From the IMG/VR virus record IMGVR_UViG_2541047698_000009: a stretch of DNA of 10,038 nucleotides, one strand, 5' to 3'. Within the stretch, counting starts at the first letter, position 1, and each line of letters begins with the position of its first letter. The stretch is from a virus (Duplodnaviria; Heunggongvirae; Uroviricota; Caudoviricetes). Positions 1,407 to 9,055 of this stretch are shown piece after piece. The notes under the pieces were generated by a model, which worked only from the letters and a program-made list of their open reading frames with translations, did no database searches and had not been told where the DNA came from. The translations under genes were made by a program, and so were the position numbers.

Positions 1407-2150
1407 ATGACACAGACTGAATCAGCGATTCTGGCGCATGCCCGGCGGTGTGCGCCTGCGGAGTCGTGCGGCTTCGTGATAAGCACGCCGGAGGGGGAGC
1501 GGTATATCCCTTGTGTGAATATTTCCGCGGAGCCGGAGGCGTATTTTCGTATCGCACCGGAAGACTGGCTGCGGGCAGAGATGCAGGGGGAGATTGTGGC
1601 ACTGGTCCACAGTCATCCCGGTGGGCTGCCCTGGCTGAGCGAGGCTGACCGGCGGCTGCAGATAAAAAGCGCACTGCCCTGGTGGCTGGTCTGCCGGGGT
1701 GACATTCACAAATTCCGCTGTGTGCCACATCTGACGGGACGGCGCTTTGAGCACGGGGTGACGGACTGTTACACGCTGTTCCGGGATGCTTATCATCTGG
1801 CGGGGACTGAAATGCCGGATTTTCATCGCGAGGATGACTGGTGGCGCAACGGCCAGAACCTGTACCTGGACAACCTGGCGGAAAACGGCTTTTGCCGGGT
1901 GTCTCCGTCCTCTGCACAGGCAGGCGATGTGCTGCTGTGCTGCTTTGGTTCATCGGTGCCGAATCATGCCGCCGTTTACTGTGGTGACGGCGAGCTGCTG
2001 CACCATATTCCTGAACAACTGAGTAAACGGGAGAGGTATTCCGAAAAATGGCAACGACGAACGCATTCTGTCTGGCGTCACCGCCACTGGCACGCATCCG
2101 CCTTTACGGGGATTTACAACGATTTGGCCGCCGCCTCAGCCTGTATGTGA
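1407..2150 (+). CDS. K: Tail tip assembly protein K (JAB/MPN + NlpC/P60 domains)
   Basis: ATG at 1407 lies 10 nt after the L stop. The 247-aa product has a JAMM-type motif HSHPGGLPWLSEAD (HxHx7Sx2D) and NlpC/P60-like Cys/His (VTDCYTLF, PNHAAVY). The ORF-track start at 1146 is an in-frame upstream extension inside L and is rejected. The exact start is uncertain; I recall lambda K being annotated shorter, from an internal ATG. Confidence 0.85.
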   Translation: MTQTESAILAHARRCAPAESCGFVISTPEGERYIPCVNISAEPEAYFRIAPEDWLRAEMQGEIVALVHSHPGGLPWLSEADRRLQIKSALPWWLVCRGDIHKFRCVPHLTGRRFEHGVTDCYTLFRDAYHLAGTEMPDFHREDDWWRNGQNLYLDNLAENGFCRVSPSSAQAGDVLLCCFGSSVPNHAAVYCGDGELLHHIPEQLSKRERYSEKWQRRTHSVWRHRHWHASAFTGIYNDLAAASACM

Positions 2151-2728
2151 ACACGGCAGCGGAAGCCATTCGCGCCCTGTCGATGCAGATGCCGGGCTTT
2201 CGCCGTCAGATGAACGAAGGCTGGTACCAGATACGTATTGCCGGTGATGACACGGCACCGGAGGCGGTGTACGCCCGTCTTCACGAACAGCTGGGTGAGG
2301 GAACGGTCATCCACATTGTGCCGCGACTGGCCGGGGCCGGAAAGGGTGGACTGCAGATTGTGCTGGGGGCGGCAGCCATCGTGGGCTCTTTCTTCACGGC
2401 CGGTGCCTCGATGGTGTTATGGGGTACAGCCCTGAGTGCCGGCGGTTTTTCTGCCACCACGATGCTGTTTTCACTGGGGGCCAGCATGATACTGGGCGGT
2501 GTGGCCCAGATGCTGGCCCCGAAGGCAAAAACACCGGATTACCGCGCAACGGATAACGGCAGACAGAACACGTACTTTTCCTCACTGGATAACATGATTG
2601 CCCAGGGGAACCCGATGCCGGTGCCTTACGGGGAAATGCTGGTTGGCTCCCGCCGTATATCCCAGGACATCAGCACCCGTGATGAAGGCGGGGGCGGAAA
2701 GGTCGTGGTTATCGGGCGGCAGGGGTAA
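2048..2728 (+). CDS. I: Tail tip assembly protein I
   Basis: 226-aa ORF beginning MATTNAFCLASPPLARIRLYGDLQRFGRR, with a Gly/Ala-rich hydrophobic C-terminal half as in lambda gpI. It overlaps the 3' end of K by 103 nt in another frame, as K/I do in lambda. Confidence 0.88.
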   Translation: MATTNAFCLASPPLARIRLYGDLQRFGRRLSLYVNTAAEAIRALSMQMPGFRRQMNEGWYQIRIAGDDTAPEAVYARLHEQLGEGTVIHIVPRLAGAGKGGLQIVLGAAAIVGSFFTAGASMVLWGTALSAGGFSATTMLFSLGASMILGGVAQMLAPKAKTPDYRATDNGRQNTYFSSLDNMIAQGNPMPVPYGEMLVGSRRISQDISTRDEGGGGKVVVIGRQG

Positions 2729-2774
2729 AAAGAATAAAAAAATCCCGCAGTGATCGCGGACAGGAACTGCGGGA
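2729..2774 (-). terminator. Intrinsic terminator, minus-strand orientation only
   Basis: Perfect 9-bp stem 2743-2751 (TCCCGCAGT) / 2766-2774 (ACTGCGGGA) with a 14-nt loop. On the minus strand it is followed by UUUUUUUAUUCUUU (complement of 2729-2742). On the + strand there is no U-tract after the stem. Confidence 0.6.
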
Positions 2775-2832
2775 GAGTTACGAAGATTAAGTGTAAGGAA
2801 TTATTCTTATATCACGACAAAAAAATTAACGC
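2736..2832 (-). ncRNA. Candidate small non-coding RNA (moron) between I and J; ends approximate
   Basis: Lies between a near-consensus minus-strand promoter (2839-2866) and the minus-strand terminator (2729-2774). No ATG and no ORF longer than 2-3 codons on that strand within the interval. U-rich 5' part and a CU-rich stretch before the terminator stem. Confidence 0.35.
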
Positions 2833-2838
2833 AGAGAA

Positions 2839-2866
2839 ATTATACGCGCCACAGTCAGTTTGTGAA
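2839..2866 (-). promoter_or_regulatory. Putative sigma70 promoter, reads leftward on minus strand
   Basis: Minus-strand reading: -35 TTCACA (complement of 2861-2866, 5/6 to TTGACA), 16-nt spacer, -10 TATAAT (complement of 2839-2844, 6/6). A/T-rich block upstream (2867-2890). Predicted start near 2832. Confidence 0.4.
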
Positions 2867-2930
2867 AATGTGAAGATATTCAGAATTTTTATGCCATTAC
2901 CGGTTTTAACCAACAGGATTATCGGTGGGC

Positions 2931-2974
2931 ATGAAAGAAAACCCCGGTATCTGCTGATACCGGGGTTTCTCTTT
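2931..2974. terminator. Bidirectional intrinsic-terminator-like hairpin
   Basis: Perfect 13-bp stem 2939-2951 (AAACCCCGGTATC) / 2956-2968 (GATACCGGGGTTT) with 4-nt loop TGCT. Followed by TTTCTCTTT on the + strand and by TTTTCTTTC on the minus strand. Confidence 0.5.
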
Positions 2975-3071
2975 AGCATGGCAGAAATGTGTTTCATGCT
3001 TTTCGGGCGAAGGATATCCGACTTCTGTACGGAATGGCAAGTGGCGGTTAATTTATTCAGGGGAAGGCTGT

Positions 3072-6000
3072 ATGGGAAAAGGTGGCGGTAAGGCACACAC
3101 GCCTCGTGAGGCGAAGGATAATCTCAAATCCACGCAGATGATGAGTGTGATTGATGCGATTGGTGAGGGACCGATAGAAGGTCCGGTGAAGGGACAGCAG
3201 AGTATTCTGGTGAACAAAACCCCGCTGACGGACACGGACGGTAATCCCGTGATACACGGTGTGACTGCGGTCTGGCGTGCCGGGGAGCAGGAGCAGACAC
3301 CACCGGAAGGCTTTGAGTCCTCCGGAGCTGAAACCGGACTGGGCGTGGAAGTGACGAAGGCAAAACCGGTGACGCGCACCATTACGTCCGCGAACATTGA
3401 CCGCCTGCGGGTTACCTTCGGGGTGCAGTCACTGGTGCAGACCACGTCAAAGGGCGACCGTAATCCTTCCTCTGTCCGGATTCTGATTCAGTTACAGCGT
3501 AATGGCCGCTGGGTGACGGAAAAGGATGTCACCATTAACGGCAAGACCACCTCGCAGTTCCTGGCCTCGGTGATTCTGGATAATCTGCCTCCCCGGCCCT
3601 TTAACATCCGGATGGTCAGGGAGACGGCGGACAGCACCACGGACCAGCTGCAGAATAAGACGCTGTGGTCGTCATACACCGAAATCATCGATGTGAAACA
3701 GTGCTACCCGAACACGGCCATTGTGGGGCTGCAGGTGGATGCGGAGCAGTTCGGCGGCCAGCAGATGACGGTGAACTACCATATCCGCGGTCGCATCATC
3801 CAGGTGCCGTCAAACTATGACCCGGAAAAACGCACGTACAGTGGTATCTGGGACGGCAGCCTGAAACCGGCATACAGCAACAACCCGGCCTGGTGTCTGT
3901 GGGACATGCTGACTCACCCGCGCTACGGCATGGGAAAACGTCTGGGGGCGGCGGATGTGGACAAGTGGGCGCTGTATGCCATCGGGCAGTACTGCGACCA
4001 GACGGTCCCGGATGGTTTCGGGGGGACCGAGCCGCGGATGACCTTTAATGCGTACCTGGCACAACAGCGTAAGGCGTGGGACGTTCTCAGTGATTTCTGC
4101 TCTGCGATGCGCTGTATGCCGGTATGGAACGGCCAGACGCTGACGTTCGTTCAGGACCGTCCGTCGGATGTGGTGTGGCCGTACACCAACAGCGATGTGG
4201 TGGTGGATGATAACGGCGTGGGTTTCCGCTACAGCTTCAGTGCCCTGAAGGACCGGCACACGGCAGTGGAGGTGAATTACACCGACCCGCAGAACGGCTG
4301 GCAGACCTCCACGGAACTGGTGGAAGACCCGGAAGCCATACTGCGCTACGGACGCAACCTGCTGAAGATGGACGCGTTCGGCTGTACCAGCCGCGGTCAG
4401 GCCCACCGTGCCGGACTGTGGGTGATAAAGACCGAACTGCTGGAAACGCAGACGGTGGATTTCACGCTCGGGTCTCAGGGGCTGCGGCACACACCCGGTG
4501 ACATCATTGAAATCTGTGATAACGACTATGCCGGGACCCTGACCGGCGGACGTGTCCTGTCCATTGATGCTGCCACCCGCACCCTGACGCTGGACCGTGA
4601 AGTGACACTTCCGGAGACCGGTGCCGCCACGGTGAACCTGATTAACGGCAGTGGTAAGCCGGTGAGTGTGGACATCACCGAACACCCCGCGCCGGACCGG
4701 ATACAGGTCAGTACCCTGCCTGATGGTGTGGAGACATACGGGGTGTGGGGACTCTCCCTGCCGTCACTGCGCCGTCGCCTGTTCCGCTGTGTCTCCGTCC
4801 GGGAAAACACGGACGGCACCTTTGCCATCACGGCGGTGCAGCACGTACCGGAAAAAGAAGCCATTGTGGATAACGGGGCCAGCTTTGAGCCGCAGTCAGG
4901 CAGCCTGAACAGCGTTATCCCACCGGCAGTGCAGCACCTGACGGTGGAGGTGAGTGCAGCTGACGGTCAGTATCTGGCACAGGCGAAATGGGACACGCCG
5001 CGGGTGGTGAAGGGTGTGCGCTTCAGTCTGCGTCTGACCAGCGGAAGCGGAGAAGACAGCCGTCTGGTGAGCACCGCCATCACCGCAGACACGGAGCACC
5101 GTTTCAGTGGTCTGCCGCTGGGGGAATACACCCTGACGGTGCGGGCCATTAACAGCTACGGCCAGCAGGGCGAACCTGCGACCACCACCTTCCGGATTAA
5201 CGCGCCTGCAAAACCCGCCACCATTGAGCTGACGCCGGGGTATTTTCAGATAACGGCGGTACCGGTGCTGGCGGTGTATGACCCGACGGTGCAGTTTGAG
5301 TTCTGGTTTTCGGAAAAACGCATCACGAACACGGCACAGGTGGAAAAATCTGCCCGTTATCTGGGGACCGGCAGTCAGTGGACTGTCCAGGGCGATCGGA
5401 TTAAGCCGGGGATGGATTTCTGGTTTTATGTGCGCAGTGTCAACCTGGTGGGCAAGTCTGCATTTGTGGAAGCCAGCGGGCAGGCCAGCAATGATGCAAA
5501 AGGGTATCTGGAATTTTTCCGTGGTCTGATAGATGAGACGCTTCTGGGCCAGGCACTGAAAGAGCGCATTGATGCTTCAGCGCTGCGTACGGAGGTCACG
5601 CAACTGGAAGAAGACATCCGTCAGCGGATGGACACGGATATCGCAGAAGTGACCCGGAAAATCGGGGAGGCGGAAAACAGCCTCACGCAGCTGGTTGCGA
5701 AAAAGAATGAGGACCAGACACTGGCCATCGCGCAGGTGAGCCAGAAAGTGGACCGGGTGAGCAGTGAAATCTCACAGACTGTCAGCCAGGGGCAGTCAGA
5801 AAATGCCCGACAGATAGCACAGGTCCGCCAGTACGTGGATAAAAAAGGGAGTGAAATTACCTCGACCACGGATAAAAAACTGGGTGACCAGGCCGTGACC
5901 ATACAGCAAATCCAGCGGGTTCAGTCAGACACGCGCAATGAGCTGAATGCCATGTATATGCTGAAGGTGCAGAAAACAAAAAACGGTATTCCCTATGTGG

Positions 6001-6764
6001 CCGGGATTGGTGCGGGGATTGAGGATGTTGATGGTCAGACGCTGAGCAGTATTCTGCTGCAGGCGGACCGTATCGCGATGATTACCCCGGAGAATGGCAA
6101 CACCACGCCGCTGTTTGTGGCGCAGGGGAATCAGCTGTTCATGAACGACGTGTTCCTGAAGCGACTGTTTGCGGTGAGCATCACGTCATCCGGCAATCCT
6201 CCTACGTTTTCCCTGACGCCGGATGGCAGGCTGGCAGCCCGCAATGCGGATATCAGTGGAGCCATCACGGCGAATACCGGCACGCTCAATAATGTCACCA
6301 TTAACGAGAACTGTGTCATCAGAGGGAAACTGTCTGCAAACCAGATTGAAGGCGATCTCGTTAAAACAGTGGGTAAGGCTTTCCCCCGTGACTCCCGTGC
6401 ACCGGAGAGGTGGCCATCAGGGACCATTACCGTCAGGGTTTATGACGATCAGCCGTTTGACCGGCAAATTGTTATTCCGGCGGTGGCATTCAGCGGTGCC
6501 AGACATGAGCGGGAGAATAACGATATTTATTCGTCATGCCGCCTGATAGTACGGAAAAACGGTGCTGAAATTTATAACCGTACCGCGCTGGATAATACGC
6601 TGGTTTACAGTGGTGTTATTGATATGCCTGCTGGTCGCGGCCACATGACGCTGGAGTTTTCTGTATCAGCATGGTGGGTAAATGGCTGGTATCCCACAGC
6701 AAGTATCAGCGATTTGCTGGTTGTTGTGATGAAGAAAGCCACTGCAGGCATCACGATTAGCTGA
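3072..6764 (+). CDS. J: Host specificity protein J (central tail fibre / tail tip)
   Basis: 1230-aa ORF; N-terminus [39 protein letters not shown] and long internal stretches ([95 protein letters not shown]) match lambda gpJ as I recall it. RBS-like GGGGAAGG upstream of the ATG. Confidence 0.95.
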
Positions 6765-6783
6765 ATTTTATAACCCCAATACG

Positions 6784-6807
6784 GGCGCCAGAAATGGCGC
6801 CTTTTTT
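6784..6807 (+). terminator. Intrinsic terminator after J
   Basis: GC stem GGCGCC (6784-6789) / GGCGCC (6796-6801), 6-nt loop AGAAAT, followed by TTTTTT (6802-6807). Confidence 0.6.
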
Positions 6808-6831: not shown

Positions 6832-7431
6832 ATGCGTAAATTATGTGCTGTTATTCTGTCCGCAGTAGTCTGGCTGGTTGCCGCTGGTACACCAGCGAGC
6901 GCAGCAGAGCATCAGTCCACACTAAGCGCCGGGTATCTTCAGACCCACACTGATATGCCAGGCAGCGATAATCTGAACGGGATTAACGTGAAATACCGTT
7001 ATGAGTTTACGGACGCGCTGGGGCTGATTACGTCCTTCAGTTATGCCAATGCTGAGGATGAGCAAAAAACGCACTACAGCGATACCCGCTGGCATGAAGA
7101 TTCCGTGCGTAACCGCTGGTTCAGCGTGATGGCGGGGCCATCTGTACGCGTGAATGAATGGTTCAGTGCTTATGCGATGGCAGGTGTGGCTTACAGCCGT
7201 GTGTCGACGTTCTCCGGGGATTATCTCCGCGTAACTGACAACAAGGGGAAAACGCACGATGTGCTGACCGGAAGTGATGACGATCGCCACAGCAACACGT
7301 CTCTGGCGTGGGGAGCTGGCGTGCAGTTTAACCCGACCGAATCCGTGACCATTGATATTGCTTATGAAGGTTCCGGTAGTGGCGACTGGCGAACGGATGC
7401 ATTTATTGTTGGTATCGGATACCGTTTCTGA
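6832..7431 (+). CDS. lom: Lom-like outer membrane beta-barrel protein (Ail/Lom/PagC family)
   Basis: 199-aa ORF with a signal peptide (MRKLCAVILSAVVWLVAAGTPASA then AEHQ). Conserved blocks GINVKYRYE, SVMAGP, SAYAMAGVA, DIAYEGSGSGDWRTD and terminal GIGYRF match lambda Lom as I recall it. RBS GAGAGG 6 nt upstream; sits directly after J as in lambda. Confidence 0.93.
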   Translation: MRKLCAVILSAVVWLVAAGTPASAAEHQSTLSAGYLQTHTDMPGSDNLNGINVKYRYEFTDALGLITSFSYANAEDEQKTHYSDTRWHEDSVRNRWFSVMAGPSVRVNEWFSAYAMAGVAYSRVSTFSGDYLRVTDNKGKTHDVLTGSDDDRHSNTSLAWGAGVQFNPTESVTIDIAYEGSGSGDWRTDAFIVGIGYRF

Positions 7432-7536
7432 CAACAGACGCCGATTTATCTTCTGTAAATATTGTTATGATACGCAGGTTCATCCGCCTTATGGGGTGAA
7501 CTGCGTTTGAGGAAACGTAAAGTTACACTGTCCTGA

Positions 7537-7568
7537 AGCCCGTGGCGTCACTGCTGCGGGCTTTTTTT
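7537..7568 (+). terminator. Intrinsic terminator after lom
   Basis: Stem AGCCCG (7537-7542) / CGGGCT (7556-7561) with a 13-nt loop, followed by TTTTTTT (7562-7568). Confidence 0.55.
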
Positions 7569-7582
7569 ATTGGTGGAAAAGT

Positions 7583-9055
7583 ATGACAGTAAAAATTTCT
7601 GGCGTGCTTAAAGATGGCACAGGAAAACCAGTACAGAACTGCACCATTGTGCTGAAGGCCAGACGGACCAGCAGCACGGTGGTGGTGAACACGGTGGCCT
7701 CTGAAAATCCGGATGAAGCCGGGCGTTACAGCATGGATGTTGAGTATGGCCAGTACAGCGTCACCCTGCTGGTTGAAGATTTTCCGCCTTCACATGCCGG
7801 GACCATTACCGTCTATGAAGGTTCCAGACCAGGTACGCTGAATGATTTTCTCGGCGCCATGACGGAGGATGATGTTCGTCCGGAGGCACTGCGCCGTTTT
7901 GAGCTGATGGTGAATGAAGTGGCACGTCATGCCGGAGCGTCATCACAGAGTGCAGCGGCGGCAAAGAAATCCGAAACGGCAGCAGCCTCATCGAAGAATG
8001 CGGCGAAAACCTCAGAAACGAATGCAGCTAACAGCGCACAGGCGGCAGCGGCCTCGCAGACTGCATCGGCAAACTCCGCGACAGCAGCCAAAAAATCAGA
8101 AACCAGCGCGAAAAATAGCGAGACAGCCACAAAGGCCAGCGAAAAAAACGCAAAATCCAGCCAGACGGCAGCGAAAACCAGTGAGACGAATGCCAAAGAC
8201 AGTGAAGCCAACGCAAAGGTGAGCGAAACAGCGGCGGCGAACTCGGCGAAAGCATCGGCAGCAAGCCAGACGGCAGCAAAAGCAAGTGAAGATGCTGCCA
8301 GAGAATACGCAAACCAGACAGCAGAGCCGTACAGATATGTTTTACAGCCGCTGCCGGATGTGTGGATACCCTTTAATGATTCGCTGGATATGATTACGGG
8401 CTATTCTCCGGGTTATAAAAAAGTGAAGATTGGTGATAATGTGGTTCAGGTTGCCAGTGATAAACAGGTTAATTTCAGTCGCGCATCAACGGCAACATAT
8501 ATCAACAAATCTGGCGAACTGAAAACGGCGGAAATTAATGAGCCACGATTTGAGTGTGATGGCCTGCTTATTGAGGGGCAAAGAACGAACTTCTTCCCGA
8601 ACAGTACAGACCCTTCGAAGTGGAATAAGTCAACTTCACTGGACGTTACAGAAACAGGCACAGATAGTTTCGGGTTTAATTATGGCCGGTTTGTCGTACA
8701 GGATTCGATTGTTGGTACAAGTAAAGCGCATACCATTATCGGACTGTATTCGAGTGCCGGAGGGGTTGATACTTCAGGGGACGAAAAGCATGTAACTATA
8801 TCCTGTCGGGTAAAAAGTGAAGTTGATAATATCGCCGTTCGTATTTTATTTGAACATTATGATGGGGAGGTAAGGACATCAATAGGAGCAGCAAACCTGA
8901 ACCTTACCACCCGCATAATTAGCAAGACAGGTCAGACAAGCCGTGTTACAGCAAGGTCTGTTAAGGATGATGCAACTGGCTGGATATTTTTTGAGGCTAC
9001 ATTAAAAGCAGATACAACAGAAAATACGGTTGGTGGTTTTGTCCAGTATTCGTAA
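7583..9055 (+). CDS. stf: Side tail fibre protein (Stf-like), probably 3'-truncated by IS insertion
   Basis: N-terminus MTVKISGVLKDGTGKPVQNCTIVLKARRTSSTVVVNTVASENPDEAGRYSMDVEYGQYSV matches lambda Stf (orf-401) as I recall it, followed by Ala/Ser/Thr/Lys-rich degenerate repeats typical of fibre shafts. RBS GGTGGA upstream. The stop TAA (9053-9055) lies inside the sequence GTAAGCG that I take to be the IS66-family terminus. Confidence 0.8.
   Translation: MTVKISGVLKDGTGKPVQNCTIVLKARRTSSTVVVNTVASENPDEAGRYSMDVEYGQYSVTLLVEDFPPSHAGTITVYEGSRPGTLNDFLGAMTEDDVRPEALRRFELMVNEVARHAGASSQSAAAAKKSETAAASSKNAAKTSETNAANSAQAAAASQTASANSATAAKKSETSAKNSETATKASEKNAKSSQTAAKTSETNAKDSEANAKVSETAAANSAKASAASQTAAKASEDAAREYANQTAEPYRYVLQPLPDVWIPFNDSLDMITGYSPGYKKVKIGDNVVQVASDKQVNFSRASTATYINKSGELKTAEINEPRFECDGLLIEGQRTNFFPNSTDPSKWNKSTSLDVTETGTDSFGFNYGRFVVQDSIVGTSKAHTIIGLYSSAGGVDTSGDEKHVTISCRVKSEVDNIAVRILFEHYDGEVRTSIGAANLNLTTRIISKTGQTSRVTARSVKDDATGWIFFEATLKADTTENTVGGFVQYS
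7952..8300 (+). repeat. Degenerate tandem repeats encoding the Ala/Ser/Thr/Lys-rich Stf shaft
   Basis: Recurring nucleotide units of the form AAA(A/T)C(C/A)GA(A/G)AC(G/C)...GCAGC, giving peptide repeats AAKKSETAAASS / AAKTSETNAANS / AAKKSETSAKNS / AAKTSETNAKDS / AKVSETAAANS. They generate the spurious overlapping ORFs 7914-8222 (+) and 7927-8211 (-). Confidence 0.6.

Follow-up and report, generated by a model that had tools for sequence, protein, structure and literature searches.

Tail genes I and J and the spacer between them

We analysed a 10,038-nucleotide stretch of DNA from a Caudoviricetes virus (IMG/VR record IMGVR_UViG_2541047698_000009; hereafter the window) and the 343-bp AT-rich island that separates its tail genes I and J (2729–3071). 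Gene I (2048–2728, plus strand) matches the Pfam family PF06805, Lambda_tail_I (E = 3e-16), and the stretch of Escherichia coli CFT073 identical to the gene I region is annotated 'tail assembly protein'. Gene J (3072–6764, plus strand) is covered over its full length by six gpJ or tail-tip Pfam families, has an extra Y_Y_Y match below threshold and is annotated gpJ in CFT073. An open reading frame (ORF) at 6832–7431 encodes Lom, and the window is a lambda-like tail region. The island comprises two modules, and we propose, with a probability of about 0.8, that it is the pasB small RNA (sRNA) locus of lambdoid prophages joined to a variant of the ancestral I–J spacer. Its anatomy, homology, distribution and conservation can be read directly from the sequences.

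An initial annotation of the window, made from the letters alone, had described an unusually long, AT-rich and probably non-coding gap, and this description withstands closer analysis. The gap runs from the I stop at 2728 to the J start at 3072, both genes being confirmed by Pfam, and measures 343 bp; the lambda spacer, put there at about 60 bp, is indeed 60 bp long (last position of I, 15444; first of J, 15505). The G+C content is 0.42 over the entire gap and 0.385–0.40 in 200-bp windows, compared with 0.56–0.63 (about 0.58) in the flanks. Two perfect inverted repeats lie in the gap, one of 9 bp (2743–2751/2766–2774) and one of 13 bp (2939–2951/2956–2968). The promoter-like hexamers that had been noted exist on the minus strand only, at 3 sites per 1 kb compared with 0.7 expected from shuffled sequences, and the best of them matches the consensus at 11 of 12 positions; the promoter scan found no plus-strand promoter able to use the spacer terminator for a short plus-strand RNA. 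The two named ORFs (2750–3091, plus strand, and 2812–3096, minus strand) are also present, cross both hairpins and lack a Shine–Dalgarno sequence before their starts. Neither has a Pfam match, and their frames are not preserved in related loci. In CFT073 the spacer corresponds to NC_004431.1 1364141–1364483 and carries no annotation. RefSeq locus tags at this locus (L003, 6001–6343) skip from C_RS06865 (I) to C_RS06875 (J); a feature in the gap was presumably once tagged and later withdrawn.

A probable pasB-family RNA locus in the left module

The left module (2729–2892, minus strand) contains, in the order of the DNA, a terminator, an RNA body, a promoter and an upstream regulatory block, and aligns over its whole length with the pasB locus of strain E2348/69. 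Read on the minus strand, a promoter is followed by a body of about 60–75 nt, a hairpin and U7, the layout of a complete gene. The predicted sigma-70 promoter TTCACA-16-TATAAT (model A; 2839–2866, minus strand) has its −10 element at 2844–2839 and is the 11-of-12 match. An alternative −10 element, TAATTT (model B; 2823–2828, minus strand), is a TANNNT hexamer found in all variants within an invariant GCGTTA block and would place the start near 2815–2817, in agreement with the published PasB 5′ end. The intrinsic terminator (2736–2774, minus strand) has arms at 2774–2766 and 2751–2743 and a U7 run at 2742–2736 that ends 8 nt from the I stop codon. Homology and the positions of promoter and terminator together predict an sRNA of 82–97 nt (2736–2832, minus strand). 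Its 3′ end is the last position of U7 (2736), and its 5′ end lies at 2832 if transcription starts 7 nt past TATAAT (97 nt) or near 2817 by homology to the published 83-nt PasB (82 nt). In the predicted fold the body is largely unpaired and is followed by the terminator hairpin. Consensus scans and folding thus describe the left 164 bp as a putatively self-contained unit with a predicted promoter and terminator of its own. A full-text literature search for the hairpin and terminator sequences returned no match.

PasB is an 83-nt RNA of prophage PP6 in enteropathogenic E. coli (EPEC) E2348/69, encoded on the minus strand at NC_011601.1 1466343..1466261 between E2348C_1436 and E2348C_1437 (Table S6, PMC8550237, Pearl Mizrahi et al. 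2021). We find that the flanking genes are those of the window, with tail assembly protein I ending at 1466255 and gpJ starting at 1466496. The gap between them aligns to 2729–2892 across the terminator, body, promoter and upstream block with 80.6% identity over about 160 bp. Mapped onto the window, the PasB 3′ end falls at 2736 and its annotated 5′ end at about 2817, and the published northern probe, AATCCCGCAGTGATCGCGGAGCT (PMC8550237), matches 2741–2760 at 20 of 23 positions. PasB gives a northern band of the predicted size and depends on Hfq for stability, with log2 fold changes upon hfq deletion of −6.8 and −2.4 in two conditions (PMC8550237). BaseMean values in E2348/69 are 482–1082 for pasB and 5–15 for I and J (PMC8550237); with counts so far above those of its neighbours, pasB is transcribed on its own in the lysogen. 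The RNA has since been described as embedded in a phage structural-gene operon and common in extraintestinal isolates (Zhu, Shabalina and Storz 2026, bioRxiv 10.64898/2026.05.13.724894).

A second group of Hfq-bound RNAs, from the enterohaemorrhagic strain E. coli O157:H7 Sakai, appears to belong to the same family. EcOnc22 (prophage Sp15) gives a northern band of about 85 nt, is destabilised without hfq and has the homologues EcOnc23 (Sp14) and EcOnc24 (Sp11) (Table S2, Tree et al. 2014, PMC4104026). Placed on the current Sakai record, the coordinates of all three fall in 240-bp J–I gaps, antisense to the tail operon. Taken uncorrected, their peaks lie 22–84 nt from the J start, off the pasB-like body. 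AsxR and AgvB, located by the sequences printed in the paper, sit 136–143 bp further along in the current record than their 2014 coordinates, which belong to an earlier version of the genome; against NC_002695.2, the table coordinates of Tree et al. 2014 are thus about 137 bp lower at 1.27 and 1.94 Mb (AsxR, AgvB). Shifted by about +137 bp, the EcOnc22–24 peaks come to lie on the pasB-like RNA body, at a distance of 160–220 nt from the J start; the assignment rests on this inferred shift. Mapping any EcOnc feature onto the current Sakai record needs the same correction of about 137 bp. From sequence and position we conclude that EcOnc22–24 and PasB are probably alleles of one family. The link between EcOnc22 and PasB does not appear in Table S6 of PMC8550237, and the accessible part of the 2026 preprint does not mention EcOnc22. 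The left module of the window would belong to this PasB/EcOnc22–24 family as well: slot, orientation, homology and terminator agree, and intermediate alleles link the sequences.

To describe the range of the family we used 5,426 complete E. coli genomes and a sample of I–J gaps drawn from 80 viral contigs whose I proteins are nearly identical, together with further loci; the sample yields 39 distinct gaps and 33 distinct left modules in 193 copies. The whole island is present in 1,662 of the 5,426 genomes and is unannotated throughout; it is 100% identical in CFT073, S88, ATCC 25922, ST648 and many more, and 633 records carry the full 343 bp at at least 99% identity. The left module alone occurs in 1,847 of the genomes, at 68–100% identity and in up to 9 copies, and in all 80 of the closest viral contigs. 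The allele of the window, of CFT073 type, is the commonest in the sample (75 of 193 copies). Left-module alleles are 156–164 bp long, with indels between them whose lengths are not divisible by three. Essentially all share the terminator core and U-run, a 5′ GCGUUA followed by a U-run, AAUCUUC, CUCCUU or UUCCUU, the −10 hexamer and the block that precedes the promoter, with the remaining RNA body and the −35 region varying freely. The 7-bp terminator core CCCGCAG/CUGCGGG and the U-run are invariant among 13 diverse alleles, and a −10 element (TATAAT, AATAAT, TATCAT or GATAAA) is present in 33 of 33 variants. AAUCUUC sits directly upstream of the terminator, the region in which the 2026 preprint also places the likely PasB seed (bioRxiv 10.64898/2026.05.13.724894). 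The island as a whole is at least as conserved as its coding flanks.

Published survey rules would miss the window allele. The 2026 preprint used BLASTN with a word size of 28 and a query coverage above 75% (bioRxiv 10.64898/2026.05.13.724894). With PasB as the query against the window, BLASTN at word size 28 gives no match, and at word size 11 it recovers the 25-nt terminator only (30% query coverage). The failure is a limit of the search rule and not an absence of homology. The preprint's "PasB-2", with a change at position 27, is variant v1 of our set and is paired with the same right module as the window allele; this pairing probably accounts for the bulk of the 950 records at 90–95% island identity. 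Three loci with an I protein 91–98% identical to that of the window prophage lie on short contigs of assemblies labelled Streptomyces flavalbus (L084, NZ_JBHTEB010000006.1), Parendozoicomonas haliclonae (L086, NZ_FWPT01000051.1) and a Clostridiales metagenome-assembled genome (L092, SFGJ01000116.1). The first two carry the pasB locus and the third a promoterless pasB remnant with sodC; these contigs are almost certainly contaminating E. coli sequence.

The block upstream of the promoter contains a CRP-like site, AAATGTGAAGATATTCAGAATT (2866–2887), with the core TGTGA-N6-TCAGA at 2869–2884. It has 2 mismatches among the 16 specified positions of the 22-bp consensus AAATGTGA-N6-TCACATTT and is the sole match in the 10-kb window, where 0.04 are expected and 7 of 200 shuffles had at least one. 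Both half-sites are unchanged in 32 of the 33 variants, the exception being a single-base change from TCTGA to TATGA. The distance to the −10 element is likewise fixed in 32 of 33 and off by 1 nt in one, with the N6 spacer and the −35 region variable. Constant half-sites around a variable spacer form the pattern expected for the binding site of a dimeric regulator, and the conserved site suggests that cyclic AMP (cAMP)–CRP may activate the sRNA promoter. The predicted centre lies at −44.5 from the TATAAT-derived start (2832) and at −59.5 to −61.5 from a start at 2817–2815, as given by the published PasB 5′ end and the TANNNT hexamer at 2828–2823. Standard activating centres are −41.5 for class II, and −61.5, −71.5 and so on for class I. 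Spot 42 is an sRNA repressed by cAMP–CRP. PasB is more abundant in overnight lysogeny broth (LB) than in Dulbecco's modified Eagle medium (DMEM), and Spot 42 shows the opposite behaviour in the same data (PMC8550237). By analogy, this circumstantial contrast fits activation of pasB by CRP. Promoters and CRP are not discussed in the accessible part of the 2026 preprint on PasB.

The right module and alternative explanations

The right module (2893–3071; designated R-a) is a nearly invariant, enlarged I–J spacer of 179 bp. It is at least 99% identical in 1,442 of 1,451 E. coli records, and that collection contains no diverged relatives. It combines with left modules that are 100%, 87–88% or 84% identical to that of the window and is itself identical at 179 of 179 positions in most such loci, with small indels in L084; at the same loci divergence reaches 4% over the last 300 bp of I, 7% over the first 300 bp of J and 16% over the left module. 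Other prophages have unrelated modules of 69–85 bp at this position, all of which carry a plus-strand hairpin, CAGGCAYCC...GGRTGCCTG, followed by TTGTTTTT. The right end of the module provides the J ribosome-binding site, GGGGAAGG (3060–3067, plus strand), 4 nt before the ATG at 3072.

The module contains the 13-bp perfect hairpin AAACCCCGGTATC-TGCT-GATACCGGGGTTT (2939–2968), which has a U-rich tail in each direction, UUUCUCUUU on the plus strand and UUUUCUUUC on the minus strand. Its folding energy is unusually strong, at −29.9 kcal/mol on the plus strand and −28.7 kcal/mol on the minus strand (z about −6.5), and it is probably a bidirectional terminator. A G+C-rich plus-strand hairpin with a T-run occurs in every I–J spacer examined, lambda included, and the 13-bp hairpin is, as judged from position and sequence, its putative counterpart. 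The right 179 bp appear to replace the ancestral spacer and to stand apart from the RNA gene. We also considered, and reject, the ideas that the hairpin is a mobile repeat and that the module is a relic of a sodC cassette or of the lambda spacer. Among 120 viral stretches that match CCCCGGTATC-N4-GATACCGGGG, this same I–J module accounts for 113; the remaining 7 are terminators that are unrelated to it and differ in their flanks. The module resembles neither the sodC cassette nor the lambda spacer.

The sequence of the right module would also accommodate a second minus-strand sRNA of about 75 nt, making two tandem sRNA genes, a possibility that we regard as unlikely. The candidate unit (2930–3040, minus strand; a hypothesis) has the hexamers TTGCCA-18-TATCCT at 3040–3011 within the roughly 90 bp between the hairpin and the J ribosome-binding site, and would start at about 3004 and end at about 2930. 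Its predicted fold is very stable (−31.9 kcal/mol, z −6.8) and ends in the hairpin with its UUUUCUUUC tail, and about 1,440 genomes share a nearly unchanged module between variable flanks. However, the promoter matches at 9 of 12 positions, near the level of shuffled sequence, and the plus-strand-only terminator found there in all other I–J spacers already explains the hairpin. There are moreover natural variants in which the hairpin is missing (L070) or has indels next to it (L084), and our literature search found no published RNA that maps to this position. A wider form of the idea, to which we give rather little credence, is that the I–J junction is a two-gene, catabolite-controlled RNA locus in which a CRP-activated pasB allele with its own targets in extraintestinal E. 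coli stands beside a second antisense RNA of about 75 nt or another constrained element. Were that true, the late mRNA immediately upstream of J would be a full complement of either RNA, and the two could gate tail-tip synthesis and in turn be erased by late transcription on induction.

On the pasB reading, the left module would be an AT-rich moron that lies directly after the I stop and points against the late operon. RNA polymerase would start at the sigma-70 promoter, at TATAAT (2844–2839) or possibly at TAATTT (2828–2823), move leftward and stop at the hairpin 2774–2743 with its U7, giving an RNA of about 82–97 nt. This RNA would have an unstructured body with a conserved UUCCUU/CUCCUU, complementary to Shine–Dalgarno sequences, and UAAUCUUC, and would end in a terminator and poly-U tail of the kind bound by Hfq. 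If it behaves as its homologues PasB and EcOnc22–24 do, it would be made in the lysogen, be stabilised by Hfq and act in trans on host and prophage mRNAs through base pairing, with cAMP–CRP activating its promoter through the upstream site. Its target set probably differs from that of PasB because the window allele has a different RNA body. The hairpin of the right module would work as a terminator for both strands. Plus-strand transcription that is not antiterminated would stop there, before J, and Q-modified polymerase would read through; the module would also supply the J ribosome-binding site. Expression of the window allele, control by CRP, targets in trans and termination at the 13-bp hairpin are the steps of this scheme that we infer.

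The position of the gene invites a different account of its function, in which the RNA, a perfect complement of the late-operon mRNA that joins I to J, acts mainly in cis: by pairing there it could reduce J expression or cause cleavage as long as the prophage is repressed, and late transcription after induction would conversely titrate or destroy the sRNA. All prophages examined have the gene in antisense orientation within the operon, at 8 nt from the stop codon of I, and position and orientation are kept even where the RNA body diverges. Against this, RIL-seq (sequencing of ligated, interacting RNAs) of the E2348/69 homologue recovered 37 interacting partners (Table S5, PMC8550237), and all Pas sRNAs target both the core and the accessory genome (PMC8550237). 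Tail mRNAs are nearly absent in lysogens. In other prophages sodC shares the site and orientation, so the orientation may reflect nothing but tolerance of insertions. Action mainly in cis therefore seems improbable, although cis-antisense action could coexist with action in trans.

Still less probable is that the window allele is a decaying or silent pasB copy and the island a conserved joint for the recombination of tail-gene modules. The 851-bp gap type with sodC does contain a promoterless remnant, and expression of the window allele would follow from that of its homologues, by analogy; but the promoter match of 11 of 12, the intact terminator and U7, the whole island at at least 99% identity in 633 records, its conservation, which exceeds that of the coding flanks, and its rank as the commonest allele in the sample all speak against this reading. 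That the island encodes a small protein (of 113 amino acids on the plus strand, of 94 on the minus strand, or from a shorter ORF) is scarcely credible, for although open frames cross the island they run through both hairpins, have no Pfam match and no Shine–Dalgarno sequence before their starts, break or shift in length or frame in the related loci L084, L070, L001 and L041, and would be disrupted by left-module indels that are not multiples of three.

Several observations count against the proposal that the island is a pasB locus joined to a variant spacer, or narrow its reach. The TATAAT start predicts an RNA of 97 nt, whereas two laboratories report about 83–85 nt for other alleles. For CRP, −44.5 is a non-standard activating position, and class I geometry (about −60) fits only the weaker −10 element. 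No compensatory change was found at any base pair of the sRNA fold, because the sole shared helix never varies; conservation, and not covariation, therefore supports the structure. Rfam gives nothing meaningful, either in a gathering-score scan of the whole window or in an E-value scan of 2600–3200 (best scores of 15–20 bits against cut-offs of 39–315), and RefSeq annotates no feature within the gap. The RNA body is identical to PasB at 64 of 83 positions, and equivalent function is an assumption from sequence. Expression, size and Hfq dependence are documented in the literature for the E2348/69 and Sakai alleles and would extend to the window allele by analogy. The 13-bp hairpin falls one T short of the T-run rule of our terminator scan on each strand and is absent from its list. 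The invariance of the right module may reflect selection or a recent recombination sweep, between which a single allele cannot separate.

The I–J junction as a cargo slot

Comparison with relatives indicates that the junction has received extra DNA. The I–J gap is 60 bp in lambda, 86–90 bp in relatives from Enterobacter, Rahnella and Pantoea, and 234–343 bp in the window and related E. coli prophages. A moron, as Juhala et al. 2000 are cited in PMC4104026, is an autonomous cargo unit in a lambdoid late operon. The island consists of extra DNA between genes that are adjacent in relatives, differs in G+C content from its surroundings (0.42 compared with 0.56–0.63) and contains, according to scans and folding, a predicted promoter and terminator of its own. 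Expression from a repressed prophage holds for the E2348/69 homologue and would hold by analogy for the window allele.

The initial annotation had proposed a moron-type autonomous transcription unit inside the late operon, and the predicted promoter and terminator, together with expression of the pasB homologue while the tail genes are nearly silent, bear this out. We refine the proposal by placing the unit on the minus strand and by taking its product to be a small RNA, points on which the annotation was silent. Its view of the gap as a single inserted island survives in part: the spacers of 60–90 bp outside the group speak for an insertion, but there are two modules, of which the right 179 bp would replace the ancestral spacer. 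It had also named an equally long, homologous spacer in most lambdoid phages as an outcome that would speak against an insertion. For E. coli lambdoid prophages whose I is of this type, such a spacer is indeed the rule; because spacers outside the group are short, the island still qualifies as an insertion, one that is old and widespread and not private to this phage.

Other cargo is found at the same place. In gaps of 851 and 903 bp an antisense sodC gene occupies the I–J junction (PF00080, E = 8e-32; L058, L065), in some loci beside an intact pasB locus and in others in place of the pasB promoter. The 851-bp gap (L065, L067, L092) retains the pasB body and terminator (the first approximately 106 nt), and the sodC cassette replaces the promoter and the CRP-like block, so that what remains of pasB has no promoter and lies downstream of sodC on the same strand. 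In Enterobacter wuhouensis (L088) and Pseudocitrobacter faecalis (L090) a gap of 662–666 bp follows the I homologue and contains a plus-strand ORF of 181–185 amino acids with a lipoprotein-like signal (LxxC), its own terminator and no Pfam match. The presence of sodC and of this lipoprotein-like ORF at the same junction supports the moron reading, and the I–J junction is a recurrent cargo slot, a hot spot for morons, in which an sRNA, sodC or a lipoprotein-like gene adjoins a conserved plus-strand terminator hairpin.

Elsewhere in the window, strong intrinsic terminators on the plus strand lie directly after J (6783–6802) and after lom (7535–7564), with stems of 8 and 13 bp that are each followed by TTTTTATT. 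They bracket lom in a moron-like manner and are consistent with a late operon that antiterminated polymerase reads and that tolerates terminators. Within the tail-fibre ORF at 7583–9055, the AT skew reaches 0.74–0.76 (A far above T) at 8001–8300, and the G+C content is 0.42–0.45 from about 8300 onward, which suggests a module boundary inside the fibre gene.

The sRNA family itself is already known, and the island is a locus of this prophage family. New here are the recognition of a divergent, very common and unannotated allele, the merging of EcOnc22–24 with PasB, the predicted CRP-like site, and the two-module structure with its near-invariant right module. The result places an sRNA gene, in up to 9 copies, in one-third of complete E. 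coli genomes, yet the gene is absent from RefSeq annotation and from Rfam; the window allele is carried by the much-used extraintestinal and reference strains CFT073, S88 and ATCC 25922. Since the published survey would not count this allele, the family is larger, and its seed region more varied, than reported. The conserved CRP-like site offers a simple, testable idea of when prophages may switch this regulator on.

Three further candidates were set aside as counterparts of the island. HnrS, a multicopy prophage sRNA of enterohaemorrhagic E. coli (EHEC) considered for its copy number, corresponds to EcOnc10–12 at another site and not to EcOnc22–24; sRNA-17 of E. coli K1 belongs to a different place, an intergenic region longer than 1 kb; and EcOnc33 and EcOnc54 of Sakai prophage Sp6 are both outside the I–J gap.

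Among known systems, the I–J spacer of lambda (NC_001416 15445–15504) shares with the right module a plus-strand hairpin, AAACCGCC-TGCG-GGCGGTTT, followed by TGTCATTT and the J ribosome-binding site, and the same hairpin and T-run layout recurs in the Enterobacter, Rahnella and Pantoea spacers; the lambda spacer differs in that it lacks an sRNA gene, shows no similarity in sequence to the island and is one-third as long as the right module. The EHEC RNAs AgvB, AsxR and HnrS (PMC4104026, PMC13502914) are likewise short sRNAs that depend on Hfq and have a promoter and an intrinsic terminator of their own, encoded as morons in lambdoid late regions, but they are located downstream of pR′ and the lysis region and are unrelated in sequence, and the Rfam families RF02702, RF02703 and RF02676 have no match in the window. 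The sodC moron of other E. coli prophages shares the junction, the antisense orientation and a terminator of its own, and differs in carrying about 530 bp of protein-coding cargo. EcOnc22–24 are closer: they are Hfq-bound, lie in I–J gaps on the antisense strand and have the same terminator core and promoter layout, with another allele of the RNA body (variant v7). PasB, finally, occupies the same I–J slot in the same antisense orientation with an identical terminator core and U7 and a homologous promoter and upstream block; it differs from the window allele in its RNA body, of which the 5′ two-thirds are largely rewritten, and in that E2348/69 pairs it with another right module, of 75 bp.

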